A stretch of DNA of 64,000 nucleotides from an uncultured Alphaproteobacteria bacterium (GCA_963803575.1 CAWDMW010000002.1:886389-950388); one strand, 5' to 3'. Positions 1 through 13,840 are shown, counted from the first letter of the stretch. A program made the numbers and translations. Notes: generated by a model from the letters alone, not told the origin.

Positions 1-301
1 TCTCATAGTTCAATTGAGGAGTTGTATCAGCCTCTTTATGGTCAGGATATAAAATATAAAATAAGACAGCGTGTAGTGCGGTCTCGTTAAGAGAGTCTAG
101 GGGGTATATATCACTGGCTTTTTCAGTTGTCTCATTTGGCTTTAATATCAGGGTGTTCACTTGATCTCTAAGAGCATCTTTTATCGATTTTATTAAATCA
201 TCCCAACTAAGCTCACCACTACTTGGGTTTTTTGTATTCTGATCTAAAACCGTACGAATATCACGCGCATCTACCTTATGAGCATTAAGTACTGTAACCA
301 T
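1..301 (-). CDS. hypothetical protein, N-terminal part only (ORF runs off the left edge)
   Basis: Minus-strand ATG at 299-301. My own translation (MVTVLNAHKVDARDIRTVLDQNTKNPSSGELSWDDLIKSIKDALRDQ...) stays open for 100 codons to base 1. It is absent from the ORF track because no stop lies in the window. It starts 60 nt after the stop of 362..910 on the same strand. Confidence 0.45.
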   Translation of the reverse strand, partial: MVTVLNAHKVDARDIRTVLDQNTKNPSSGELSWDDLIKSIKDALRDQVNTLILKPNETTEKASDIYPLDSLNETALHAVLFYILYPDHKEADTTPQLNYE

Positions 302-361
302 AAAACCCCCACGCTAAATACTGCATAGGAACATATTCACCGAGAAGACAAATCACAAGAT

Positions 362-910
362 TTATAATGTGGGAGCTAATCCATCATTGTCATTTGCTCG
401 CGATGGGTATTCTAATTGATTGCCTGTGTTTAAATCTCTTCTAATTGACTCTTCTAACAATCCATTTAAATGATGTTCTTCAACAACTCTGACAATCTCA
501 CCATCCGTGTTTAATTCATCGACAATTATTGATGCGCCATTTGGGTTATGCTTGATATTTGCCTTATAAAAACCCTGAGCGCTATAATAAACTCCATTCC
601 CTCCACAAGCACCAGTTTCTGTAGTGCGCTCACAAACCGCAGATGGCGCATTCTCACGATCGCGTTTTCCATTTTTGATCCAAAGCGCACCAACAATTGC
701 TTTGGTACCCATATCAAAATATTTTACAGATGGTAAATTGTCTGGGCTATCAACAACGCCATCCTTATTTTTGACTACTTCTTTAAAGCAATCATGAAAC
801 TCGATAAAATTTTCGATACAGTCATCATCGTCTACAGCTTCATAGCTTACTGTATATCCTTTCTTGTTCAGCGCAACTTCATCTGTTTTTGCAGGTGGTA
901 AGATACTCAT
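362..910 (-). CDS. hypothetical protein (182 aa)
   Basis: Longest ORF in the region; only short shadow ORFs overlap it. Acidic N-terminal third and a Gly/Asn-rich middle (WIKNGKRDRENAPSAV, GGNGVYYSAQGFYKANIKHNPNG). No family recognised by eye. Confidence 0.5.
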   Translation of the reverse strand: MSILPPAKTDEVALNKKGYTVSYEAVDDDDCIENFIEFHDCFKEVVKNKDGVVDSPDNLPSVKYFDMGTKAIVGALWIKNGKRDRENAPSAVCERTTETGACGGNGVYYSAQGFYKANIKHNPNGASIIVDELNTDGEIVRVVEEHHLNGLLEESIRRDLNTGNQLEYPSRANDNDGLAPTL

Positions 911-971
911 TCATAGGCTTTCTCTTAATCATATTTACTAGATATTACTATAATACAGCATATTAAGTCAA

Positions 972-994
972 TTTGTCAGAGTTATTCTGACAAA
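972..994. promoter_or_regulatory. perfect 9-bp inverted repeat in a divergent promoter region (candidate operator)
   Basis: tttgtcaga (972-980) / tctgacaaa (986-994) with a 5-nt spacer. It lies between the divergent starts at 910 (-) and 1071 (+). Confidence 0.35.
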
Positions 995-1070
995 AATCCG
1001 ACAAAGCTCCATATCCTATTTGATGAAATATCAGTCATGCTGTTCTCATAACTTAGCGATGAGGATCGAC

Positions 1071-1367
1071 ATGAAAACACTAAATTACTTTAATCAAGAT
1101 TACACCGAAACAGAATTAGCTGCATTAGAAGATCAGCCATTACCGATCGTGAATGATCCCGATTATGACGGCACAGTTTCACCTACGCCCACAGAACCAT
1201 CTGATTCACCGCCACCTGAACCATTGGGGGATAGCGCAGTCGCATTGCCACGTCATGTGGAGCAATGGCTGGATAACGCTTTTGATGATCTGGATGATAT
1301 TGAGCGTTGGCCAGATGATGGCGGATTTGTGCTGACTGAACGCATCCCTAACGAAGTGGAGGGTTAA
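1071..1367 (+). CDS. hypothetical acidic, Pro-rich protein (98 aa)
   Basis: GAGGA at 1061-1065, 5 nt before ATG 1071; the track ORF begins earlier at TTG 1020 with no RBS. The stop is 3 nt before the next start. Very acidic (DDLDDIERWPDD) with a TPTEPSDSPPPEP centre. Confidence 0.5.
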   Translation: MKTLNYFNQDYTETELAALEDQPLPIVNDPDYDGTVSPTPTEPSDSPPPEPLGDSAVALPRHVEQWLDNAFDDLDDIERWPDDGGFVLTERIPNEVEG

Positions 1368-1370
1368 GCG

Positions 1371-2612
1371 ATGAAACTACAAAACAAACAACGTGACGCA
1401 CTAGAGAAAACAACACTTTCTCCAGACGCAATAACATTAACCTCTAACATTGAGTTTGCGGAGGAGCTGAAAGACCTTAAAGCCGCGCATGAGAGACGGC
1501 CTACGAAAGTCTATCTGGTGACGCTAGCCGCAGCCGCACTCTCGGGCTTTATGAGCGCACGGGGCATTATTGAGAAAACCATTGAAGCAGGCGTGATTGA
1601 TGAAGTCTCGATTGGCTCAGCAATTATGTCGGGCGCGGTGTGCTGTGCCTTGCTTACCACCGCCACGATGATGACATTTTCTATTGCGATGGAATCAGCA
1701 CGCAAGCAACGCTGGAAAGTGATTGCTCTGGTGACAACGCTGCTTGTTCCCACCATTGGTGTTAGCAGCTTCTATAGTCTGCTTGGCAATGCAGGAAGCG
1801 CGAGCCTTTCCTATAATATGCAGGATCAGGCGATTGCCCATCGTGAGTATTACGCTGCGTCAATACTGGATGCATCAGAAGCAAAAAGCCGTGCTGACGC
1901 GCTCATTCCGCTGCGTGATGATATTTGCACACGCGCTGATCAGGAGCGTCTCACAGGCCGCTACTCGGGGTCAAAGGGATACGGAAAAGCCGTGCAATCA
2001 ATGGATTCAGTCTGTTCTCAGATAACGTCAATTGTCGAGACGTTACTGAATACGGCATCGAACACCGAAGCACGGGGTAAGCAGGCAACAGAGATTTTAA
2101 ACAAGCTTGCCAGCATTGCCAAAGACCAGTCCATCGGTAATGTGTTTGAGCGTCAGGATGTGTATCGCGAAACGGCTAATCAACTTATGGAGTTGATTCA
2201 GACATTCTTATCCGAGAATGTTGTGGAGCGGCTGAATGTGCAGCTTGCTAATCTGCAAGCCTCTGTTTCTAGCTCTGGCGTACAGAAAAATACCTTTGGT
2301 CAGGTGCAATCAGCCATCATTGAGGATTTGCGCGTTCTTGTCGACAAGGTTGCTGAAAATCTTGAGGGCATGACCGATGTCAGTGATATGCCAAAGGCAA
2401 CGCCACCCGCACCATTAATGGATATGGGTGAAGCGGTGTTTCACTATTCGAGAAAGAACACTCCACAGTATTTGATGGCTTTGTTGCTTGATCTAATGGT
2501 TGTTTTTTATTGTGCGGCATTAACGCTATCTCGCTCGATTCCACAAGCCAGAAAAGAGGAAATGCTGGAATCACAGCCATCCTCTCAATCTTCAATAACT
2601 CAACAATCATAG
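1371..2612 (+). CDS. hypothetical polytopic membrane / coiled-coil protein (413 aa)
   Basis: GGAGGG upstream of the ATG. Three hydrophobic helices in residues ~45-150, a long helical middle, and one C-terminal TM (PQYLMALLLDLMVVFYCAALTL). The topology resembles DUF4407-type proteins, but this is unverified. Confidence 0.6.
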   Translation: MKLQNKQRDALEKTTLSPDAITLTSNIEFAEELKDLKAAHERRPTKVYLVTLAAAALSGFMSARGIIEKTIEAGVIDEVSIGSAIMSGAVCCALLTTATMMTFSIAMESARKQRWKVIALVTTLLVPTIGVSSFYSLLGNAGSASLSYNMQDQAIAHREYYAASILDASEAKSRADALIPLRDDICTRADQERLTGRYSGSKGYGKAVQSMDSVCSQITSIVETLLNTASNTEARGKQATEILNKLASIAKDQSIGNVFERQDVYRETANQLMELIQTFLSENVVERLNVQLANLQASVSSSGVQKNTFGQVQSAIIEDLRVLVDKVAENLEGMTDVSDMPKATPPAPLMDMGEAVFHYSRKNTPQYLMALLLDLMVVFYCAALTLSRSIPQARKEEMLESQPSSQSSITQQS

Positions 2613-2622
2613 GAGAATTATC

Positions 2623-3234
2623 ATGAGAAAATTACTTAATTATACGACGCGTATGGGCTTATCTGGTTTTAGCAATATGTTGCTTGCTGCGCTTGCAAGC
2701 AGCGTCGCTGTCACCTCTATCATATTGCTCAGCCTCTATGTCGTCTCATATGCCAAAGAGTCAGACGCGATGAAAGCACTGCAATGTGCATCAGGTCTGG
2801 TGTCTCGTCCTGATTGCCCAGATCAGCAGGCGGCTATGGATGCTTTGCAGCAAGAGTTGGACGCGTTAGCGGCGCAAAAGGAACAGATGGAGGCTAAGCT
2901 TGGTACGCTCAAGCGTATTAGCGATACGGTGGATTCCGTAACGTTGTTTAAAATGGTAGATATCGACGGAACGGGCATGAAACTGATAGTTGGATCGACG
3001 TATTCAGACTTGTTGAACCCCACTACAAAGCCGGCCTATCACTGCTATATAAGCTTGCGCGGCAATAGTTCGCACGGCAATAATACAGGTATTGAACGTA
3101 ACCTGTATATCCGTAGTGCTGTCGGTGATGTAGATATCACAAAGGACATGCTGCGTGACGCAGACATCACTGAATTTACGGTGCATTTTGCGCGGGCGCA
3201 TTGTAAGCCCTACCTCATTGGCGGCGCTGTATAG
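2623..3234 (+). CDS. hypothetical membrane-anchored coiled-coil protein (203 aa)
   Basis: AGGAG 8 nt upstream. N-terminal TM (MLLAALASSVAVTSIILLSLYVV), a coiled-coil stretch (QQELDALAAQKEQMEAKL), then a globular C-terminus. The stop is 2 nt before the next start. Confidence 0.6.
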   Translation: MRKLLNYTTRMGLSGFSNMLLAALASSVAVTSIILLSLYVVSYAKESDAMKALQCASGLVSRPDCPDQQAAMDALQQELDALAAQKEQMEAKLGTLKRISDTVDSVTLFKMVDIDGTGMKLIVGSTYSDLLNPTTKPAYHCYISLRGNSSHGNNTGIERNLYIRSAVGDVDITKDMLRDADITEFTVHFARAHCKPYLIGGAV

Positions 3235-3236
3235 CC

Positions 3237-5138
3237 ATGCGCAACAATTCCAAACAACATGGTGAGATTATTCGGCGGGGGTTTCCCTTGCCGAATATCT
3301 TGCTGGCAGCTGGTGCTTATGAGGTGATGGGCTGGCTGGGTGGTGACACGCATACTGTCATTCATCACGACACTATCATTATGCATTTGCCAGCCGCCGC
3401 CGCTGTAATCTGCATAGTCAATGTGCTGAGTATATCAGAATGGACGTTCAATCATCTGGCTGAGCGTATTGAGCTAAAACTGGCGCGAACGCCTATTGGC
3501 ATCAAAGGCACGGGGCGCTGGTCAACGCGCAAAGAAGCGTTGCGAATTTCACAGAAATATTATTGGGGGCCATATTTTGGTGCAATCTCTATGGGATGGT
3601 TCCGCCGTAATCGTGAACTGATTATTCCTTACGAATGCATGGCAACGACATTTGGCCCAAGCGGTAGCGGTAAAACAACGAAGGTGCTTCTCACCAATGC
3701 ATTCGCCTTAAAATATGAATCCAAGTTCCTGACAGATTTTAAATCTGACCTGACCTATCAGCTTTATCACCCGCTTTCAAAATACGGCGATGTGATTGTC
3801 CTCGATATTGGCGGTGAGTTTGATGGTCACCCCACCATTAAAACAGCCTACTATAATCCGTTATCATTGCCACTGGATTGTTTTGAACAAGCTGGCTGCC
3901 TTGTTGATGTTAAAGCTATGGTCGCAGAGTTGATTAATCAGCTCTATCCCATAAATGATAAAACACCCGATCCATACTGGCCTAACGGGGCGCGAGAGGC
4001 ATTACAGACGATTGTTATTTACGTTGTGATCCTACGGGATACGCAAGCGCATTTAGGGCATGTCGAGGCAATGCTTAATGACAGCGCGGCATTACTGGCT
4101 GATATGCGGTTTGCCGCAGGGTCATGTGTGAATGCAGAGGGTAACGCATTAGAGCCAATGGCGCTTGAGCAAACCTCGTGGGCATTATCAGGCCTTCATG
4201 ATCCTCAGGACGTAAGTAATTTTATCGCATGGTTTCGCCGTCGCGCTGCGGAGTTAGTAAAAATGCTATCAGCAACAGATACACGCACGATTGATTCATT
4301 CCTCTCAGGCGCACGGCAACAGCTCAGCGACTTTGCGGAAACGGGGCGATTATTCAGGGTCATGAATAAAACGTCGTTTCGGTTCTCACAGATGAAAGAA
4401 GGCGATCGTCCGACAACGGTGCTGATGCCTATTGATAGCACACGATTAGAAACCCAGAAGAAAGCTGCGGCATTATTGCAAAAATGCATGATCATTGAAT
4501 TGCAGCGTCACAAGAACAAACATCGTGAAGTGTATCTTTTACTGGACGAAATTTCTAATTTTCCGCTAACAGGCTTGGATACGCTGCCAACCTATTCACG
4601 CTCTTACGGATTAAGACTGCATCTGTTTCTACAAAACATTTCAGCTTACGCTCACCAGCACGGCGAACATGCGGCGCGTGTCATGGAGTCTGAAAGCGAA
4701 ATTTTCCAGTTTCTATCAGGCATTCGTGAAGAAAAAACGATCAAACTGGCGCAGCGTTTGATGGGTAATCGCTCAATCGTTACCAACAGCAACTCAGGTG
4801 ATCGTAGTGAATATGGCGTGAAAGGCACAGCGTACCGTGAGGATTCTATGCCTCTCATGGACGCAGAACAAATCCGTAGAACGCAACATACGCTGTTATT
4901 TGTGGGGCAGCATTACGGCATCATCAGCCAAGCGCCCACCATCTTCGAAGCACGCCCTTGGGGGCATGAGATAGATGCAAACCCGCATTACGGTACGAAA
5001 AAGAAGATTGATAAAGCCGTTCTTGTGATGGGTGATCGGTTGCCGCCAGTGCAGGTGCAGTGTTATTGGGTCGTCAAGCGTATCATCGCGATGCCATTCA
5101 CCATTCTGCGCTGGTGTCTCACAGGAGGCCGCGTATGA
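3237..5138 (+). CDS. type IV secretion coupling protein, VirD4/TraG family (633 aa)
   Basis: N-terminal TM helices, Walker A (GPSGSGKTTKVLL) and Walker B-like (EVYLLLDEISNF). YGLRLHLFLQNISAYAHQHGE matches the conserved T4CP block (rgyGi..Qs..QL...YG). Family-typical length. Confidence 0.85.
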   Translation: MRNNSKQHGEIIRRGFPLPNILLAAGAYEVMGWLGGDTHTVIHHDTIIMHLPAAAAVICIVNVLSISEWTFNHLAERIELKLARTPIGIKGTGRWSTRKEALRISQKYYWGPYFGAISMGWFRRNRELIIPYECMATTFGPSGSGKTTKVLLTNAFALKYESKFLTDFKSDLTYQLYHPLSKYGDVIVLDIGGEFDGHPTIKTAYYNPLSLPLDCFEQAGCLVDVKAMVAELINQLYPINDKTPDPYWPNGAREALQTIVIYVVILRDTQAHLGHVEAMLNDSAALLADMRFAAGSCVNAEGNALEPMALEQTSWALSGLHDPQDVSNFIAWFRRRAAELVKMLSATDTRTIDSFLSGARQQLSDFAETGRLFRVMNKTSFRFSQMKEGDRPTTVLMPIDSTRLETQKKAAALLQKCMIIELQRHKNKHREVYLLLDEISNFPLTGLDTLPTYSRSYGLRLHLFLQNISAYAHQHGEHAARVMESESEIFQFLSGIREEKTIKLAQRLMGNRSIVTNSNSGDRSEYGVKGTAYREDSMPLMDAEQIRRTQHTLLFVGQHYGIISQAPTIFEARPWGHEIDANPHYGTKKKIDKAVLVMGDRLPPVQVQCYWVVKRIIAMPFTILRWCLTGGRV

Positions 5139-5413
5139 CACCGATACGTTTTCGCTTTCAATATCGATGTGCAACATTCAGCCGCCTGATCAGCCAAATG
5201 ATTGGCTATTGGAAGCCACTCGCTATCGCTGCGTTCTTTGCCTCCAGTACAGGGCCGCACCTGCGTTTGAATGAATTGTACGATCGCCCATCTTACGGGC
5301 AGTGCCTGTATCTGGGATCACGCGGCGTGATTACGCATCAGGGCTTATCAGGGCATGGCTGCCCGTGGGTCGTCATTCTTAATTCTGACCATCAGAGAAA
5401 GTTTTATGAATGA
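5135..5413 (+). CDS. hypothetical small protein (92 aa), translationally coupled to the T4CP
   Basis: ATG 5135 overlaps the T4CP stop as ATGA. Its own stop overlaps the next start (ATGAATGA at 5406-5413). One hydrophobic segment (WKPLAIAAFFASS). The track lists a longer version from 5060. Confidence 0.5.
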   Translation: MTPIRFRFQYRCATFSRLISQMIGYWKPLAIAAFFASSTGPHLRLNELYDRPSYGQCLYLGSRGVITHQGLSGHGCPWVVILNSDHQRKFYE

Positions 5414-6092
5414 TAAAAAATCAGACCTACCCGATATCCGTTATGCGCATCCGTCCCACGCCGAATTCAATGCACGGCTGGCGGCAAAGAATGAGCCAAC
5501 GCCGCGTGACGTAACTGCGCCGTGGAGTCCGTCGCAGAATCTGCCCAACCTCAGACGCGACTTCGCGCAGCTCAACACCTATCTGCAACCTCGCTCGCAT
5601 ATCACAGAGCAAGATAATACAGATCAGCAACGCGGCTCCCGCATGGTCGAGGTCGATCATCTTGCGCCAACATTAGTGCCACCGCCTAATATCCGTGATC
5701 CCGTTGATCGTGAATCATTCGGAAGACGCTGGCTTCTCGAACAACGCGAAGCTGTGTTGGCGCAGGCGGTGATACCGCAGAACCAACAGCAGCGTGTCAA
5801 TACTCATCGGCAGCATAACCAACAATTTAACCACCACTCAGGAGAGTCTTTTATGACAGACCAAACAAGCACTCAAAACTCAAGTTCACCACAACTATCA
5901 CCGACACCAAATGCACCGCTGGAAACCTTCAAAGATGGCGCAGCCGTTATTAAGCTCTGGCAACAGGAAGGGCGCGATGGGCAAATCCACGTCAATGCAT
6001 CCGTCGGGCGCTTGTATAAGGATAATGAAACAGGGCAATGGAAAGAGAGTAAATCATTCAGCCCTCTGATCTTTCTAAGTTGGGCAACATGA
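5406..6092 (+). CDS. hypothetical Gln-rich protein; probably continues into 6080..6409 through a frameshift
   Basis: ATG 5406 overlaps the upstream stop. A possible internal start lies at 5855 (AGGAGA, 7 nt, ATG). It carries the motif REAVLAQA, which recurs as RDAVLAQA in the next ORF. Confidence 0.5.
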   Translation: MNDKKSDLPDIRYAHPSHAEFNARLAAKNEPTPRDVTAPWSPSQNLPNLRRDFAQLNTYLQPRSHITEQDNTDQQRGSRMVEVDHLAPTLVPPPNIRDPVDRESFGRRWLLEQREAVLAQAVIPQNQQQRVNTHRQHNQQFNHHSGESFMTDQTSTQNSSSPQLSPTPNAPLETFKDGAAVIKLWQQEGRDGQIHVNASVGRLYKDNETGQWKESKSFSPLIFLSWAT

Positions 6093-6409
6093 TGCCCAGA
6101 GCTTTGGCTCATGCTAGTGCGTTTGAGCATAACCTTAATGCACAACGTCAGGAACAAATGAAAGCACATGCGCAATCGCAGCAAACGCCTGCACCTGTTC
6201 AAGTCACGCCTGCTCAAGTCGTGCCAACGCTAACACAGCAGCAACAAGCACAACCACTCTCAGCCATGCGCTCGGATCAAATCGTAGCGCAGCAAGATAT
6301 GGTCGCTCAACGTGATGCGGTGCTGGCTCAGGCGCAACCAGCGCAAAGCCCGTCGCAGGAAAACACACAGGAGTATGCACACACCCAAAACCATGAACCA
6401 TCGCGCTAA
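6080..6409 (+). CDS. hypothetical Gln-rich protein, likely the 3' continuation of the preceding ORF
   Basis: It starts only at a TTG inside the previous ORF, with no RBS. Its frame is open from 6053, so it overlaps the end of the previous frame (stop at 6090-6092). Confidence 0.4.
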   Translation: MGNMMPRALAHASAFEHNLNAQRQEQMKAHAQSQQTPAPVQVTPAQVVPTLTQQQQAQPLSAMRSDQIVAQQDMVAQRDAVLAQAQPAQSPSQENTQEYAHTQNHEPSR

Positions 6410-6574
6410 GGAGGAACAGCGCGCTATATTAGTAATTATTCATAAAGTTGAATCACTTACGCGGAGTCATTTCTTGTAATTTAAGCCATTATAGGATAAT
6501 GTTCCTATTATGTTCTTGGGTGGAATAAGACGGAAATGACACCGCCGCACCAAAAAAGAAAGGAGAACATCACC

Positions 6575-6847
6575 ATGACAAAACAACAACCAACTCTTAC
6601 GATGGATATCGCATTATACGAGCATTTTCTTGAAAATAGCCATTATACTGAGGAAGAAAAGCAGGAATATCTGGAAACCATGTGGAACATCATCTGTGAG
6701 TTCGTCACGATGGGCTTCCATGTTCATCCTGTACAGATGGCACTTGATGATAATCAGCCCTCCTGTGGAAAACAGTCACAAACCACTGGAATCCCTATGG
6801 AAGCAGAGTCGCATAGGATAGAATCAACAGTAGAAGAAGGAGCGTAA
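6575..6847 (+). CDS. hypothetical small protein upstream of the recombinase (90 aa)
   Basis: AGGAGA at 6561-6566, 8 nt before ATG 6575. The stop is 3 nt before the recombinase start. No family recognised. Confidence 0.5.
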   Translation: MTKQQPTLTMDIALYEHFLENSHYTEEEKQEYLETMWNIICEFVTMGFHVHPVQMALDDNQPSCGKQSQTTGIPMEAESHRIESTVEEGA

Positions 6848-6850
6848 GCT

Positions 6851-8407
6851 ATGACAGAAGCAACAAAAGTCCTGATATATTGTCGTGTTAGCGATACTAA
6901 GCAGAAAACCGAAGGCCACGGATTAGACAGCCAAGAGCATCGCTGCCGTCAATATGCCGCAACACACGGCTATGAGGTCGAGCAAGTGTTTCCTGACGAT
7001 GCCAGCGGTGGAGGTGATTTCATGAAACGCGCTGGCATGGTTGCTTTGCTACGCTATCTTGATCAAAACCTCCACACCAATTATGTGGTGCTGTTCGATG
7101 ATCTGAAACGCTTTGCGCGTGATCGTGAGTTCCACTTCAAACTAAGACGTGAACTTGCTGCCAGAAGTGCCAACGTGGAATGTCTCAACTTCACATTCGA
7201 CGATACGCCTGAGGGTGAGTTTGTCGAAACCATCTTCGCCGCGCAAGGTCAGCTTGAACGATTGCAAAACCGCCGCCAAGTCATACAGAAAATGAAAGCC
7301 CGTATGGAGTTAGGCTATTATGTGTTTAATGCGCCGATTGGTTACGCTTACGACAAGGTTGCAGGGCATGGTAAATTGCTGGTTCGCGATGAACCGATTG
7401 CTAGTATTCTCCAGCAGGGGTTGGAGGGCTTCGCATCAGGACATTTTCAAACACAAGTCGAAGTGCAGCGTTTTTTCGAATCGAAGCCTGAGTTTCCCAA
7501 GAATAAGCAGGGTCGTGTGCATCCCTCCCGCGTGAAGGAAATTCTGACACATAGCCTGTATTCAGGCCATTTAGAGAAAGAAGAATGGAATTTATCCATG
7601 CGCAAAGGTTATCATGAGGGGCTGATAACATTAGAAACCTTCCAGAAGATACAGCATCGCCTGACGAAACAAGCTAAAGCGCCTGCACGTAAAGACATCA
7701 GCGCGGATTTCCCGCTACGTGGCTTTATCGAATGTGATCATTGTGACAGACCTATGACAGGGTACTGGGCGCAAGGTAAGTATAAGAAGTTTGCCTATTA
7801 TAGCTGCTACGATAAAAGCTGCGAGGGTCGTAAGAAAGCCATTCCACGCGCCAAACTAGAAGGTGAGTTTGAGGAAATGCTCGCAACATTACGACCATCA
7901 GAAGACTTGTTCAATGTCGCCAAAGCAATGTTTAAGGATGCGTGGGATCAGCAATATGCACAGACCGCTTCACTACTCAAAGCCACTAAGCATAAGGTGC
8001 TCGGCATTGAAAAGCAGATGGAGCAATTGCTGGATCGCATTATGGAGTCGTCCAACAGCACGGTTATCGGCAAATACGAGCAACGTATCAGCGAATTGGA
8101 GCACGAGAAACTAATTTGGGCAGAGAAAATGACCTCTCAGCCGCAAAAACACGGCACCTTCGAGGAAATGTTCGAACTCTCCATGAATTTTCTGCTTAAC
8201 CCGCAGAAACTATGGCAGTCCAGCCGTATTGAGCATAAGCGTGCAGTGCTAAAACTAGCCTTCGAAGACCGTATTCCATATCACCGTGACAAAGGACTTC
8301 GAACTCCAAAAACCACCATACCTTTCAGTATGTTAGCAGGTATTTGTGGAAATAATGTAGAAATGGTGGGCGATGAGAGACTCGAACTCCCGACATCCTC
8401 GGTGTAA
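6851..8407 (+). CDS. large serine recombinase (518 aa)
   Basis: Resolvase catalytic N-terminus (VLIYCRVSDTKQ ... FDDLKRFARD), a recombinase domain, a Cys cluster (CDHCDRPMTGYW...YYSCYDKSCEGR) and a coiled-coil tail. The last 14 codons are antisense tRNA-Val sequence. Confidence 0.85.
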   Translation: MTEATKVLIYCRVSDTKQKTEGHGLDSQEHRCRQYAATHGYEVEQVFPDDASGGGDFMKRAGMVALLRYLDQNLHTNYVVLFDDLKRFARDREFHFKLRRELAARSANVECLNFTFDDTPEGEFVETIFAAQGQLERLQNRRQVIQKMKARMELGYYVFNAPIGYAYDKVAGHGKLLVRDEPIASILQQGLEGFASGHFQTQVEVQRFFESKPEFPKNKQGRVHPSRVKEILTHSLYSGHLEKEEWNLSMRKGYHEGLITLETFQKIQHRLTKQAKAPARKDISADFPLRGFIECDHCDRPMTGYWAQGKYKKFAYYSCYDKSCEGRKKAIPRAKLEGEFEEMLATLRPSEDLFNVAKAMFKDAWDQQYAQTASLLKATKHKVLGIEKQMEQLLDRIMESSNSTVIGKYEQRISELEHEKLIWAEKMTSQPQKHGTFEEMFELSMNFLLNPQKLWQSSRIEHKRAVLKLAFEDRIPYHRDKGLRTPKTTIPFSMLAGICGNNVEMVGDERLELPTSSV

Positions 8408-8439
8408 ACGAGGCGCTCTACCAACTGAGCTAATCGCCC
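8364..8439 (-). tRNA. tRNA-Val (anticodon UAC), CCA encoded
   Basis: The reverse complement folds by hand as GGGCGAT-TA-GCTC-AGTTGGTA-GAGC-G-CCTCG-TTTACAC-CGAGG-ATGTC-GGGAG-TTCGAGT-CTCTC-ATCGCCC-A-CCA. That is 76 nt with a canonical cloverleaf and TAC in the anticodon loop. Confidence 0.9.
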
Positions 8440-8993: not shown

Positions 8994-10238
8994 TTAAGCG
9001 CCCAGTTCCTGGCTTGCCATAGCGGTAGCCTGGCGTTGTTGCAGCACGGCTGCGGTATGGTTGCCAAGCGCGTTTGGATCACGCTCCTGACCTTGCATAG
9101 GCTCAGTGGAAGCACTCGCAGCATCTATGGATGTTGACGGGGTGCGAGAATAGGCCACAATATTATTCTCGCCCTGCATCTTATTAATATTAGCGCCATA
9201 CATAATGTCATTGCGTGTAAGTGTGTAAGCTGCTTCCGCGCCGCCCATTTCCAGTGCAACAGTATCTAGTGTGACCAAACGTGTTGGAACGACTGCACCA
9301 ATATTGGTTTCGTAAGCAAGCTGACGAGATGCATCCAGTAAGCCGGGATGGTATGTCTCTAATAAGTCTGCCTGTTCAAACTCTGCCAGTTCGCTGAACT
9401 TTTTTCCACCCGTTTGAGCAGAGATTTTTTTCTGTAATTCTTTATCGCTGGCTTTAAGAACGTTAAACACGTCAATGGAATTAACGGGCTGTCGATTATC
9501 CAGTTTTCGTTGCATAGCCTCCAGTTCGTCATAGGCTGAATCGTTTGGATCTAAGCCGGTCATAGCTGTCATAGCTTTGTTAGCAACGTTTGAAGCCACC
9601 ATACTACCAACAATTGATGAACCAAGCCATAATGCACCACCTGCCCAACCTACAGGTGTGGCGCTTAATACAGCTCCGGCAACCACTGGCATAAGTGCAG
9701 CTCCTGCTGCTGATCCGCCAAATCCTGCTGCTGTACCGCCAACGCTACGCATCAGTTTCTGGTCAATTTTTTGCACTTCTGTGCGTAACTGTTCCTGATC
9801 CGGACGCTCTGACAGCAAACGCAAATGATCCGCTGTTGCTTCTTCCGGTTTAACGCCAAGCTCTTGTACGATGTCCGCCAAATGAAGACGCGTCAGCTTC
9901 TCCATGGATTTTTCGCTGTCTTTATTGCCACGTACACCGGAGATTAGTAAACTAGCTGCTTTACCGGCTGTACCGATTACAGGGGTTACGCCTAGAACTT
10001 TTGAGCCATATTCTGCAGCAATAGAACCTGTATATTGTACGCCATTAAACACAGCTTCCCCTGCGCCATACTTCACCAGATCGGCTTCAGCTTTGCGCTT
10101 ATCCTGATAAAGCCCAAGCAACTCCTGCTGTTGCAAACGTTGCGGAGCGATGGCGGGTGCAGCCATATGACTGGCATTGACGGCGCCATTAGCCATTGGG
10201 GGGAGTGCTTGTGGATGTGTTAAGGTAGCTGTTGTCAT
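8994..10238 (-). CDS. hypothetical protein (414 aa) with a Gly/Ala-rich double hydrophobic segment
   Basis: Start at MTTATL (ATG 10236-10238), preceded by GGAGGA and 4 nt after the upstream TAA. Residues ~165-226 read VGGTAAGFGGSAAGAALMPVVAGAVLSATPVGWAGGALWLGSSIVGSMVASNVA. No signal peptide and no family recognised. Confidence 0.7.
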   Translation of the reverse strand: MTTATLTHPQALPPMANGAVNASHMAAPAIAPQRLQQQELLGLYQDKRKAEADLVKYGAGEAVFNGVQYTGSIAAEYGSKVLGVTPVIGTAGKAASLLISGVRGNKDSEKSMEKLTRLHLADIVQELGVKPEEATADHLRLLSERPDQEQLRTEVQKIDQKLMRSVGGTAAGFGGSAAGAALMPVVAGAVLSATPVGWAGGALWLGSSIVGSMVASNVANKAMTAMTGLDPNDSAYDELEAMQRKLDNRQPVNSIDVFNVLKASDKELQKKISAQTGGKKFSELAEFEQADLLETYHPGLLDASRQLAYETNIGAVVPTRLVTLDTVALEMGGAEAAYTLTRNDIMYGANINKMQGENNIVAYSRTPSTSIDAASASTEPMQGQERDPNALGNHTAAVLQQRQATAMASQELGA

Positions 10239-10242
10239 GATC

Positions 10243-11913
10243 TTACAATCCTCCAATAGCACGTTGCATGTCCTGCAAACGTCCATCTGGTTGCATGTGT
10301 GTCAGCATGGTTGTGTCTGGTGCTACGTCCTGCGTCACTGTTGCGCCAAGAGCGCCACGTTTCAGATGGTGCTGCGTTTCTGCAATGCGCCCTGATGTGA
10401 TTTCTTCCATTAAGGCCGCTGGCGTAAGCTGTTGTTCAACGTAGTGGTCAGCCAACTTCATCACATCCGGATGCTCAGGCCCTACTTTGTTGAGTGCTGG
10501 TGAACCCATTACTAACAGCAAAGACGCCATATCACCTGTCAGGCGACCACCGTTGCTTTTGTAGGCTTCACGCACGTCATGGTACGTATCCATAAGCGGA
10601 TCATGGGGCATAACACGATCCAGCAATTGTCCGGCAATCATCGGAGCCGCCATGACCATCATCATACCTCCACCCATCGCACTACGATCAGAATAATTAT
10701 TCGCCATCGTTACCGCTATAGCATCACTGACTAATGACATAGCCGCAGCGGGTGCCATCTTTCCAAGCATACCGTCACGGGCACGTATCACCGCTTCGGG
10801 TGCGTTTTTATCAAACATGGCATCAAACATGCCTGCCTGATCGTTACCTGTCATATCCTGATACAGATCGGTGATTTGTTCCATTTTATGGGCAAACTTG
10901 CTGATCGTGCGAATATCACGAATGGCGGCACCTGCATAAAGCGAGCCTTTATACGCCGTTTCGTAGATATTGTGGCTATCCATAACGTTATGCAGCTTGT
11001 CTGGTGCATTGGCAATAGATTCGCCCATCTGATCGCGTCCAAGACGGTTGCTCACAAAATCTCCGGCCTTATCAGCTAATCCTTTGATGCCATCACCAAA
11101 CTTTTCACCGAGTGATGACTCTGTACCGCTCAATGACTCGCCTGCATTATCCAAACCATCCACAATCTTTTGACGTAGTCCGGGAGCTGAATCAGTGGCA
11201 GCGGTTTGAATAAACTCTTTAGCTTCTTGTGACTGATGTAAGTTTTCTAACGTAAGCATACCGCCAGACGCATCTTTTACCACTTCGCTAGCAGACGCGA
11301 GAGATGCTGTTCTTGCTTCCTGCGCTGCTTCCCGAAATTCTGCTCGGGCTTCCTGCAAACGGGTACTATCCGTACGTAGAATGGTAGAAACCTGCTCTTT
11401 CACATGATTTAATGCTTGTGAAGGCAAATGATGCATATCTGACACGTTAGATGCACGAAAAGCGTTAAACGGTGCCATCAAACTTTTGGAAGCAACACCT
11501 AAGCCGTTGCTGATGCCCTGACCTGTGCTGGCCATCTTATCACCAGCATTTTGTAATATCTCTAAATTAGTAAAGCCACCAATGCCACCAACAACCGACC
11601 CACTAACATTTCCAATGCCGCTAATCAGTCCGCCAAACATTTTCGTGACTAATCCGGCAATCATTGGCATTCCGGCAATACGCATGGGGGTACCAACAAA
11701 CGATTGCACACCAGATAAAGCGCCACCTGTTTGTGCCAAAGTCTGGCTTGCACGTGCAACATTGCCTGCTCCGGCAACCGCAGTATTCGCGACCATTGCG
11801 CCCCCTACATTTGCACCTTGCAAGCCAGACATAGCTGTCTTGGCTGCCTGCATCTCTGCTTGAGGATTGGCTGCTAAGGTGTTTAGTACAGTTTGTGCGC
11901 CTGGAGGAGGCAA
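10243..11913 (-). CDS. hypothetical protein (555 aa) with Gly-rich N-terminal and internal Met/Gly-rich hydrophobic segments
   Basis: TTG start at 11911-11913, with GGAG 6 nt upstream. Residues ~31-114 are Gly/Ala/Val-rich (MRIAGMPMIAGLVTKMFGGLISGIGNVSGSVVGGIGGF). Residues ~384-431 read MAPAAAMSLVSDAIAVTMANN..GGGMMMVMAAPMIAGQLL. The middle is helical and charged. Confidence 0.7.
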   Translation of the reverse strand: MPPPGAQTVLNTLAANPQAEMQAAKTAMSGLQGANVGGAMVANTAVAGAGNVARASQTLAQTGGALSGVQSFVGTPMRIAGMPMIAGLVTKMFGGLISGIGNVSGSVVGGIGGFTNLEILQNAGDKMASTGQGISNGLGVASKSLMAPFNAFRASNVSDMHHLPSQALNHVKEQVSTILRTDSTRLQEARAEFREAAQEARTASLASASEVVKDASGGMLTLENLHQSQEAKEFIQTAATDSAPGLRQKIVDGLDNAGESLSGTESSLGEKFGDGIKGLADKAGDFVSNRLGRDQMGESIANAPDKLHNVMDSHNIYETAYKGSLYAGAAIRDIRTISKFAHKMEQITDLYQDMTGNDQAGMFDAMFDKNAPEAVIRARDGMLGKMAPAAAMSLVSDAIAVTMANNYSDRSAMGGGMMMVMAAPMIAGQLLDRVMPHDPLMDTYHDVREAYKSNGGRLTGDMASLLLVMGSPALNKVGPEHPDVMKLADHYVEQQLTPAALMEEITSGRIAETQHHLKRGALGATVTQDVAPDTTMLTHMQPDGRLQDMQRAIGGL

Positions 11914-12634: not shown

Positions 12635-13840
12635 ATGAATGCTGTAGCACGTCCAGATACGCTTGTATCAGCGAATGATCGTACCTACGCCAGATTGCAG
12701 GATAACCATCCATCTATGCAAAAAGGCGAAGTAGCTACCGCTGAAGAATCACTGCCGTCTATACGTTTGCAACGGGTCAAGGCGGAAGATAGTAAAGAAG
12801 GTCTGCACATCCCTTTTCTGAACGTATCTGTCGATATGGGGCAGTTTCTAACGCAATATAACTCATTGCGTACCACATGTTACGTGGCTCAGGCGCTCTT
12901 CCCTATCGTAACCAACTATTTTCAGCATCGCCAGGACGGCAATGCTGGCGCGATGTCGCTGACAGATCATCGTCAAGCTATCGTCGATCAATATAATGAT
13001 ACGCCAGTTGATGTAAGCAATGCGGTTATCTCAAACTATTTGAGGGCAGAAAGTACTATCTTTGCTGGTATGGCAGTATCTTACGGTGCAATGGAAGTTC
13101 AAAAATTAATGGAAGACTCTAAAGTTGCGCTCGCACTCGAATATGACAAACCGCAGGATGAAGTGACGCTGGGCGACTTAATGCATTCAGAGAATCCAAT
13201 GGTTCAATCGCATTTTCGCCTGTCTTGCTTAAAGAACGCTGTACGAGCCGTTAGCGGTTCCGGGTTTGCATTCAATCTGGAAGCGGGACTTGTCGGGATT
13301 GCTGTTGATATTGGTTTGGAACGTACCGTATTTGCAGCAAAAACCAGCTATGACAAGCTTAAGCATGTGATTAATCATGCACAAACTAACGCGCATTCAG
13401 GCAATGCTGCATGTGAAATAATGGCCAATGATTTGCAGGAAGTAATGCAATTAATGCGGGAAAATCAGGGGAAAGTACATGTATGTCAGCATGACATGCT
13501 GAAACTCCGTGATGTCACCGAAATGATTGCGGATGACGTCTTAAAGCAGGTGATGAGTATTGAAGATATGATCGCAGTGATGGGGGGAGGGATCATCAAC
13601 CCTGATGATCCGAATCAGTCTATGGAAAACTATCAGGTGTTTCGTTCGCAAAAACTACAATCTCCTGACGTGTGTCATCGTATATTGGAGCAACCGTCTC
13701 CCCCCTTGCCTGTAGCACATGCCGCTTCACCGGAAATTGCTTCACCGGAGGTGAGCCAACATCGTCATGAATATCGTGACAAGCTCATGAATGACCGAGC
13801 CAATTTAAATCATTTTGAACCTATTACCTATTATCGTTAA
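12635..13840 (+). CDS. hypothetical protein (401 aa)
   Basis: Long ORF with only a short shadow overlapping it. No signal peptide and no recognisable family. No obvious RBS at 12635, so the start is uncertain. Its last ~85 codons and 3' flank form repeat copy A. Confidence 0.6.
   Translation: MNAVARPDTLVSANDRTYARLQDNHPSMQKGEVATAEESLPSIRLQRVKAEDSKEGLHIPFLNVSVDMGQFLTQYNSLRTTCYVAQALFPIVTNYFQHRQDGNAGAMSLTDHRQAIVDQYNDTPVDVSNAVISNYLRAESTIFAGMAVSYGAMEVQKLMEDSKVALALEYDKPQDEVTLGDLMHSENPMVQSHFRLSCLKNAVRAVSGSGFAFNLEAGLVGIAVDIGLERTVFAAKTSYDKLKHVINHAQTNAHSGNAACEIMANDLQEVMQLMRENQGKVHVCQHDMLKLRDVTEMIADDVLKQVMSIEDMIAVMGGGIINPDDPNQSMENYQVFRSQKLQSPDVCHRILEQPSPPLPVAHAASPEIASPEVSQHRHEYRDKLMNDRANLNHFEPITYYR

Follow-up and report, generated by a model that had tools for sequence, protein, structure and literature searches.

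Why does the gene for a type IV coupling protein (T4CP) sit in a tightly packed run of genes whose other products resemble none of its usual neighbours? The question arose at positions 1,071 to 5,413 of a 64-kb stretch of DNA from an uncultured Alphaproteobacteria bacterium (GCA_963803575.1, CAWDMW010000002.1:886389-950388; 64,000 nucleotides, here called the window). An earlier note on this DNA had described five coupled open reading frames (ORFs), the fourth of them encoding the T4CP. It had proposed an undescribed coupling-protein subcomplex or, alternatively, a T4CP-type ATPase recruited to a function other than conjugation. A T4CP gene is taken as a marker of conjugation, and one that stands alone, an "orphan", is usually written off as debris. 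We analysed the window together with related loci numbered L001 onwards, L001 being an independent Logan contig of 10,752 bp. In our judgement the chance is slightly better than even that these genes form the transfer module of an integrative mobilisable island, inducible by the SOS response, which would use the type IV secretion system (T4SS) of a helper element.

Gene organization and the conserved unit

The genes and sites that carry the argument are as follows, in window coordinates.

1071-1367, plus strand: orf98, 98 aa, lineage-specific and outside the conserved backbone
1371-2612, plus strand: gene A (orf413), 413 aa, predicted polytopic inner-membrane protein
2623-3234, plus strand: gene B (orf203), 203 aa, predicted bitopic protein
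3237-5138, plus strand: T4CP, 633 aa, VirD4/TraG-type by Pfam, motifs and fold
5135-5413, plus strand: gene C (orf92), 92 aa, start overlapping the T4CP stop
5406-6409, plus strand: fused gene D-E, which reads as orf228 (5406-6092) and orf109 (6080-6409)
6501-6515, plus strand: LexA (SOS) box GTTC-N7-GTTC, GTTCCTATTATGTTC, 21 nt 5' of gene F
6536-6847, plus strand: gene F (orf103), 103 aa, acidic, translationally coupled to the recombinase gene
6851-8407, plus strand: large serine recombinase, 518 aa, 3 nt after gene F
8364-8439, minus strand: tRNA-Val(TAC), called by ARAGORN, integration target and right border

The packed layout reported in the earlier note proved exact. At the junctions, the first four ORFs are separated by 3, 10 and 2 nt, the T4CP stop and the orf92 start share a 4-nt ATGA at 5135-5138, and orf92 overlaps a sixth ORF by ATGAATGA at 5406-5413. 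The coupled run extends past 5413 into this sixth gene (5406-6409), which is frameshifted in the window. L001 was 100% identical to window positions 1-8331 with identical gene calls and reached 2421 bp further left. As judged from gene calls and gene order, the five ORFs are not chance, because L001 calls the same genes and the homologues of A, B, T4CP and C keep their order elsewhere.

The contexts of related loci were obtained from protein look-ups, one JGI metagenome scan and a scan of species-representative genomes, the last queried with a four-sequence alignment of central T4CP family members. The species-representative scan yielded 15 loci in metagenome-assembled genomes (MAGs), assigned to Erythrobacter, Kordiimonas (two), Maricaulaceae, Parvularculaceae, Magnetospira, Rickettsiales and unclassified Alphaproteobacteria, with one Sedimenticolaceae and one bin labelled Cyanobacteria. 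A three-sequence T4CP alignment had no match in viral contigs, and a first genome-contig scan with the same alignment gave none either. About 24 distinct related loci, mostly from alphaproteobacterial MAGs plus Logan and JGI contigs, keep the order A-B-T4CP-C-D-E-F-recombinase, and intact ORFs recur in them, so the block is not a degraded set found only in the window.

The first position of this backbone is held by a polytopic membrane protein of ~350-470 aa. Among the sequences examined, the second protein is bitopic, with ~200 or ~290-330 aa, except in L019, where it is secreted (456 aa). After the T4CP come C (~80-105 aa), D (~120-170 aa), E (~125-180 aa), F (~85-175 aa) and the large serine recombinase. 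In L005 and L008, overlaps of 4 nt join B to T4CP, T4CP to C and C to D, and across loci the T4CP gene sits ~1.3-1.9 kb from the recombinase gene. The unit is not the five-gene operon of the earlier note: orf98 is not conserved, and the conserved part continues through two or three further small genes to the recombinase. Since this unit reaches a serine recombinase abutting tRNA-Val, positions 1371-8407 can be read as the backbone of an integrative mobile element.

The serine recombinase and its tRNA target

The product of the last backbone gene matched PF00239 (Resolvase; 75 bits, 8e-21), PF07508 (Recombinase; 26.8 bits) and PF13408 (Zn_ribbon_recom; 31.3 bits), all above the cut-offs. Matches in NCBIfam were XisF/CcrB-like and below the cut-offs. 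With resolvase, recombinase and zinc-ribbon domains and a length within the ~450-700 aa range, the 518-aa protein is by sequence a large serine recombinase. Its orthologues at the same position in other loci are 44-63% identical. The recombinase of L014 is broken.

Over its last 44 nt (8364-8407), the recombinase gene overlaps the 3' end of tRNA-Val, which is encoded on the other strand. In every locus reaching that far, the recombinase ORF likewise enters a tRNA 3' end on the opposite strand, and host genes follow. Six tRNA identities are abutted by the related islands, namely Val, Thr, Ser, Met, Arg and Phe. In the window, L010, L013, L016 and L019-L024, the terminal 14-101 nt of the recombinase ORF read as the reverse complement of the 3' end of the tRNA. 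Because the ORF end is the reverse complement of the tRNA, the C-terminal tail of the recombinase varies with the targeted tRNA (...VGDERLELPTSSV in the window).

To the right of tRNA-Val lies core chromosome with HU, ProS, RpsA, a Brucella-type CckA and a TRAP transporter. Beyond HU, three ORFs of 430, 556 and 401 aa (8994-10286, minus; 10243-11913, minus; 12635-13840, plus) had no NCBIfam match at 1e-5, and the first two overlap by 44 nt. The end of the identity with L001 at window position 8331 was considered as the att crossover and rejected, as the recombinase residues encoded by 8322-8363 are conserved in L002, whose tRNA was not called by ARAGORN. A duplicated tRNA fragment that could serve as the left att site was found in no locus, which fits serine recombinases, since these need only a very short shared core. 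The island is at least 10.8 kb long here and probably ~11-15 kb in relatives.

The coupling protein

The earlier note had called the fourth ORF a T4CP, and each line of evidence agreed. The protein matched PF02534 (55 bits, 8e-15; cut-off 20.1), PF12696 (51.3 bits, 1e-13; cut-off 22) and PF10412 (29.1 bits, 6e-7; cut-off 20.5). It also matched the VirD4-like CD1115 model of NCBIfam at 1.7e-25, short of the equivalog cut-off set for that model. It has a Walker A motif GPSGSGKT (K146) and a Walker B motif LLLDE (E438), and K146, E438 and Q466 are invariant in 42 of 42 members of the subfamily. Hydropathy places a hydrophobic segment at 45-71, predicting an N-terminal membrane anchor. An AlphaFold2 (AF2) model built on the 42-member alignment had a mean predicted local distance difference test (pLDDT) score of 90.3, with helices at 18-34 and 50-84. 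The best matches of this model in Foldseek were Cagβ (5e-19), TrwB (6e-14) and DotL (9e-10). By sequence, motifs and modelled fold, the 633-aa protein is thus a true VirD4/TraG-type T4CP.

The protein is distant from the T4CPs studied so far. It is 12-14% identical to solved T4CPs. A single-sequence search of the PDB sequences found no match, and the best match of its profile there reached only 2e-10. Among 72,556 plasmids, it gave two weak partial matches only, and a more central member of the clade gave none at 1e-10. An exhaustive profile search yielded 143 clusters (at 50% identity) of the clade at E<1e-30. The list contained ~55 rows below E 1e-90, ~45 of them near full length. These 143 clusters, with their invariant ATPase residues, indicate a diverse subfamily under purifying selection. 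By these sequence comparisons, it belongs to a deep, separate clade, for which we found no close relative on sequenced plasmids.

Split T4CP genes were observed in some loci. In L018 (9573-11698) and L019 (9986-12105), the T4CP is divided at one shared point into ORFs of 293 aa and 413-415 aa that overlap by 4 nt, and gene C is absent from these two loci. Either a T4CP truly encoded by two genes or one frameshift common to both loci may explain this arrangement. The T4CPs of L016 and L017 are also split.

Partner proteins of the coupling protein

The descriptions of the partners in the earlier note held up. The product of orf98 is extremely acidic (pI 4.05; 24 D+E against 4 K+R), and its gene has a GAGGA ribosome-binding site 6 nt 5' of the ATG. 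It had no homologue in any related locus and no match in Pfam, NCBIfam, PADLOC or PHROGs. Hydropathy gave orf413 three N-terminal transmembrane (TM) segments (49-67, 78-107 and 115-138) and one C-terminal segment (365-390), with a ~225-aa helical domain carrying two invariant cysteines between them. Homologues of gene A occur in L005 (46% identity), L006, L015, L018, L020 and L002, always two genes 5' of the T4CP gene, and a tblastn search with orf413 found none among the 72,556 plasmids.

Gene B, always immediately 5' of the T4CP gene, encodes a protein anchored by one N-terminal TM segment (16-45 by hydropathy), followed by a coiled-coil stretch and a strand-rich C-terminal domain of ~95 aa. 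C55, C141 and C194 were invariant in an eight-member alignment. The single-sequence model of orf203 was poor (pLDDT 53), with a long helix at 68-104 and then strands. The gene C product begins with a weakly hydrophobic stretch, and its PH-R, C-YLG-RG and CP motifs are conserved. A TM segment was absent by hydropathy from the window copy and present in the L005 copy. Homologues of gene C lie immediately 3' of the T4CP gene in at least 15 loci, mostly with a 4-nt overlap.

The earlier note could not assign any of these partners to the usual T4CP neighbours, and neither could we. Searches of orf98, orf413, orf203 and orf92 against Pfam and NCBIfam gave only chance-level matches (E 0.03-0.09, far below the cut-offs), and PADLOC and PHROGs gave nothing at E<=0.01. 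None of the four proteins matched profiles of DUF4407, TrbL/VirB6, VirB8, entry exclusion, DotM/DotN or the Ti-type TraC/TraD at E<=0.1 in Pfam or NCBIfam. Family profiles of orf413 and orf203 matched only coiled-coil noise among PDB sequences. As far as these profiles can tell, the partners belong to no described accessory family. The conserved cysteines of the envelope partners and the existence of secreted variants suggest periplasmic domains, so that A, B and C would appear to face the periplasm. A subcomplex of the T4CP with these proteins, as proposed in the earlier note, may be envisaged from the conserved gene order and the translational coupling.

An exchangeable gene pair upstream of the T4CP gene

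The two genes 5' of the T4CP gene exist in at least four sequence-unrelated versions across the loci.

Version 1, orf413/orf203-type: window, L002, L005, L006, L014, L015, L018, L020
Version 2, A2/B2: L004, L007, L008, L010-L013, L016, L021, L022
Version 3: L019, a 396-aa protein with four TM segments and a 456-aa secreted protein
Version 4: L024, 349-aa and 429-aa proteins, known from gene sizes only

The first protein of version 2 has 420-470 aa and about four central TM segments, and the second has ~290 aa and a vWA-like DxS...SDG-QNS pattern. Homology of A with A2 and of B with B2 was considered, and hhalign gave probabilities near 1%; they were therefore treated as non-homologous. B2 had no match among the 72,556 plasmids. 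The three versions examined at the sequence level share one design, a polytopic protein with an envelope-exposed protein bearing conserved cysteines.

L006 (685-2355) and L020 (7916-9586) showed 93% DNA identity over gene A and the first ~240 nt of gene B. Past an abrupt break inside B, the C-termini of the B proteins were ~50% identical and the T4CPs just 32%. This break in identity inside gene B indicates that the pair has been exchanged between island backbones by recombination. The pair may thus be the part of the module that faces something variable, such as the channel of the helper, the envelope or a target of exclusion.

Side observations on the hosts concern the same pair. Ankyrin-repeat and faint DUF2963 proteins are present in orf413/orf203-type islands (L005 6360-8050, L006 39-494 and L020 4918-7275), and three loci of this type came from small-genome (1.76-1.87 Mb), Rickettsiales-labelled or ankyrin-rich sources. 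Erythrobacter, Kordiimonas and Maricaulaceae carry the other pair type, not the orf413/orf203-type. There are hints here of a split of pair types between host-associated and free-living lineages.

Small downstream genes and the SOS box

Most loci carry D and E as two genes; the window, L002 and L020 have a D-E fusion, which is intact in the latter two. In the window, a 1-nt deletion near 6065, in the C run AGCCC-TCTGAT (6060-6070), shifts the frame, as seen from the comparison of SFSP|SDLSKL with SFSPDDLIKL of the intact L020 orthologue. L001, assembled independently, has this frameshift too. The D part contains the motif GPW...RDP...KTE-QRR...PPP-IRDPVDR...WL-EQR, and the E part consists of a conserved domain of ~60 aa and a Q-rich tail. 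D and E are probably small DNA- or protein-binding proteins. A PC4/YdbC-like fold for E is at most a lead, with no support from Pfam and none from hhalign against an approximate human PC4 query.

The spacer between D-E and F is 126 nt long. Alignment of the E-F spacers revealed a conserved promoter-like CTTG...TA..AT element with an exact GTTC-N7-GTTC repeat, a sequence listed as the SOS box of Caulobacter (PMC9578287). The 64-kb window contains two matches to this pattern, against 1.45 expected by chance. At the equivalent position, the box is kept in 13 distinct related loci: L002 (10595), L005 (12979), L008 (5256), L011 (4417), L013 (5397), L016 (13256), L017 (4831), L018 (12771), L019 (13173), L023 (1797), L024 (12981) and also L026/L027. 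From its placement, F and the recombinase would be repressed by LexA, and excision would be induced by DNA damage. Homologues of gene F lie immediately 5' of the recombinase gene in at least 15 loci, and the family libraries gave no match for its product, which is a candidate directionality factor or regulator.

Left part of the island and its cargo

The window also contains the following features to the left of the T4CP operon.

1-301, minus strand: 5' part of a gene for a 622-aa P-loop protein (AAA_16, STAND-like), which runs off the left end; variable cargo
362-910, minus strand: 182-aa ORF, divergent from the T4CP operon and also called in L001
972-994, no strand: perfect 9-bp inverted repeat TTTGTCAGA-N5-TCTGACAAA between the divergent orf182 and orf98, a candidate operator

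On this side, partly outside the window, L001 carries the 182-aa ORF, the 622-aa AAA_16 protein and a 174-aa coiled-coil protein. The 622-aa protein matched Pfam AAA_16 at 8e-5, below the gathering score, and a homologue at the same place in L020 is 52% identical and has C-terminal ankyrin repeats. The 182-aa ORF, with no family match and no homologue among the other loci, is probably cargo. In five other loci, the corresponding regions do not conserve the inverted repeat.

Further left, many islands share recurrent genes for a coiled-coil protein (c14), a small secreted protein with two cysteines (c17) and a small resolvase (c10). The orientation of the c14-c17-(small resolvase) segment in L005, L019 and L021 differs from that in L015, L020, L022 and the window's island, raising the possibility that the segment is invertible and driven by the small resolvase. 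The cargo between these left genes and the T4CP module differs from island to island. It includes a CHAT protease, a Sel1/TPR giant, SMC-like/AAA_21 with PHP, a RelA/SpoT-domain protein, a 1245-aa SF1 helicase, AAA_16 plus ankyrin STAND-like proteins, to whose family the 622-aa protein of the window belongs, and ABC-3C components. Judging from these domains, the cargo of the islands is of the conflict or defence type.

A conserved non-coding stretch was found at 10613-10692 of L001, ~2.3 kb left of the window start, and at 3888-3942 of L015. It contains a GC-rich hairpin with compensatory changes (GCGCG-N6-CGCGC and GCGCGG-N6-CCGCGC, respectively), followed by CCTTGCGTAAGT and AGTCCGTAGGACACCGT. 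Seen in these two islands only, it is a candidate origin of transfer (oriT) or recombinase site.

Of the backbone genes in the window copy, only D-E is damaged, by the frameshift seen in both assemblies; A, B, T4CP, C, F and recombinase are intact. Among the recurrent genes further left, c14 is truncated, and c17 and c10 are missing. The window copy may therefore be partly disabled.

Absence of relaxase and T4SS genes

No locus that we examined has a relaxase or T4SS alongside the block. Pfam marks and ORF scans detected no relaxase, VirB4 or any T4SS family in the window island or in the ~24 loci with up to 10 kb of flank; this negative covers the islands and their flanks, and partners in trans are possible. 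A VirB4-family ATPase with a set of mating-pair-formation genes, which would define an integrative conjugative element (ICE), was found in no locus. The alignments of D, C, F, c14 and c17 contained no HUH-type motifs.

Proposed mechanism and alternative explanations

The reading that we favour is mobilisation of the island through the T4SS of a helper. The backbone would comprise two units, a translationally coupled operon (A, B, T4CP, C and D-E) and the LexA-box-controlled F and recombinase genes. DNA damage would relieve the repression of F and the recombinase by LexA, and F, as a likely directionality factor, would act with the recombinase to excise the island as a circle. The T4CP would sit as a hexamer in the inner membrane beside its envelope-facing partners A, B and C, dock on the mating channel of a co-resident conjugative element and pump the island DNA into a recipient; there the recombinase would insert it again at a tRNA gene. 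For D and E, a role in DNA binding or as adaptors is possible. The helper's relaxase could nick the DNA at a mimic oriT, or an unrecognised protein of the island could do so. The sequences themselves show the gene families with their order and coupling, the identity and conserved ATPase residues of the T4CP, the position of the recombinase gene at the tRNA, the conserved SOS box, the variable cargo and the lack of recognisable relaxase or T4SS genes. We infer excision, SOS induction, the association of A, B and C with the T4CP, the dependence on a helper and the DNA-processing step.

Several points weigh against this reading. No relaxase, oriT or helper T4SS was identified in the analysed loci, and the case for mobilisation draws on the known role of T4CPs and on the linkage to the integrase. 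A T4CP without its own relaxase is unusual, and the specificity of a T4CP normally matches the relaxosome of its own element. Most related loci are MAG or metagenome contigs, and the negative on helpers extends no further than these contigs. The sole structure prediction of a partner was of low confidence. A direct repeat or second att site was not found, so the left border and excision are putative. The missing relaxase is both the main weakness of the mobilisation reading and its main point of interest.

The absence of relaxase and T4SS genes from every locus would also suit relaxase-independent or self-contained transfer, in which the T4CP with A, B and C, perhaps joined by the secreted c17 and the coiled-coil c14, would form its own DNA-export route. 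We regard this as unlikely. The DNA end might come from the serine recombinase, through its covalent 5'-phosphoserine link, or from D/E; in another variant, the DNA might be pumped to the periplasm or into vesicles, bypassing the helper channel. The essentially obligate linkage of T4CP and serine recombinase across a deep clade, the conserved cysteines that suggest periplasmic domains in the envelope partners, and the absence of the T4CP subfamily from plasmids (apart from the two weak partial matches) all speak for such a route. However, neither a VirB4-type ATPase, which to our knowledge is present in all known T4SSs, nor an outer-membrane component was found. T4CPs are not known to carry DNA across the diderm envelope alone, no serine recombinase is known to initiate transfer, and the reading as a whole is inferential. 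There is a small chance that the T4CP clade and its envelope partners represent a new mode of moving DNA that dispenses with an HUH or any other known relaxase. The island, excised after SOS induction, might be passed to the T4CP by the recombinase (or D/E); alternatively, the module might export DNA without a classical T4SS. In a relaxase-independent mechanism, an unrecognised nuclease of the island might also take the place of the recombinase.

The conflict systems carried by the islands and the hypervariable upstream pair (at least four versions, with the break inside B), typical of recognition or exclusion functions, bring up the second proposal of the earlier note, a T4CP-type ATPase recruited elsewhere. 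It could interfere with incoming plasmids or host conjugative elements (fertility inhibition, exclusion) or export proteins. We consider this improbable. The T4CP module is an invariant backbone beside an integrase and not variable cargo, its ATPase residues are invariant and PADLOC gave no matches. Because the module belongs to the backbone of an integrative element, a role in the element's own horizontal transfer is likelier than a non-transfer function. Least probable of all, and in our view very doubtful, is a decayed remnant of an ICE that lost its relaxase and T4SS genes. The decay of the window copy (D-E frameshift, truncated c14, missing c17 and c10), the split T4CPs of L016 and L017 (that of L018 and L019 being perhaps a genuine two-gene form) and the broken recombinase of L014 would agree with it. 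Yet a compact, intact and coupled set without remnants of T4SS or relaxase genes is present in ~24 loci from distant taxa at different tRNA genes, and independent decay would not converge on one gene set.

Relation to known systems

Integrative mobilisable elements (IMEs) are small integrated elements with their own site-specific recombinase, some of which have their own coupling protein (PMC5704250). In canonical IMEs a relaxase is standard and a coupling protein optional, and relaxase-less mobilisable genomic islands (MGIs) use a mimic oriT, none being described with a T4CP (Guédon et al. 2017, PMC5704250). The island resembles IMEs and MGIs in its border recombinase, its integration into a conserved gene, its lack of mating-pore genes, its adaptive cargo and its presumed piracy of a helper T4SS. 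Its own recombinase lies at the border beside a specific attachment site in the window and in all loci reaching there. It differs in always having a T4CP and no recognisable relaxase, in its tRNA-targeting large serine recombinase and in its alphaproteobacterial hosts. By its gene content, the island would work most like an IME, and it is not an ICE.

The T4CP shares Pfam families, Walker motifs, an N-terminal anchor and the fold with VirD4/TraG/TrwB proteins (Cagβ, 8DOL; TrwB, 1E9R; DotL, 6SZ9). It differs in never lying beside a relaxase or VirB genes, being flanked instead by A/B-type and C-type proteins. The coupling complex of Legionella (DotL-DotM-DotN-IcmS/W-LvgA) is similar in that a T4CP has dedicated membrane and small partners encoded alongside it, DotM being an N-terminally membrane-anchored partner of ~380 aa. 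However, A, B, C and orf98 have no sequence similarity to DotM, DotN or IcmS/W, the island partners seem to face the periplasm, and the context is a mobile island as opposed to effector secretion.

SGI1-type islands encode replacement T4SS subunits (TraN/TraH/TraG) that reshape the mating pore of the helper. A small island that brings some envelope parts of its own in order to hijack a helper apparatus is a possible analogy for A, B and C. SGI1 differs in its tyrosine integrase, in its own atypical relaxase MpsA and in subunits that are recognisably homologous to those of the helper. Tycheposons are likewise small cargo elements of marine bacteria beside tRNA genes, with the integrase at the tRNA-proximal end. 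They mostly have tyrosine recombinases and carry replication modules and no conjugation gene (bioRxiv 10.1101/2020.12.28.424599). As they have no T4CP, only the tRNA-island lifestyle is common to both.

In the literature on T4CPs, serine recombinases and tRNA islands, we found no description of this island family. The island in the window and its relatives apparently represent an undescribed family of small tRNA-gene islands in Alphaproteobacteria, with an undescribed T4CP clade and six or seven protein families. Such islands would carry defence-type genes between marine and host-associated members of this class, and surveys of the mobilome that use MOB typing, and so depend on a relaxase call, would label them non-conjugative. 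The family offers a tractable system for learning how an element with a coupling protein and no relaxase transfers, what its swappable envelope partners recognise, and whether the serine integrases that rebuild tRNA genes offer useful site specificity.

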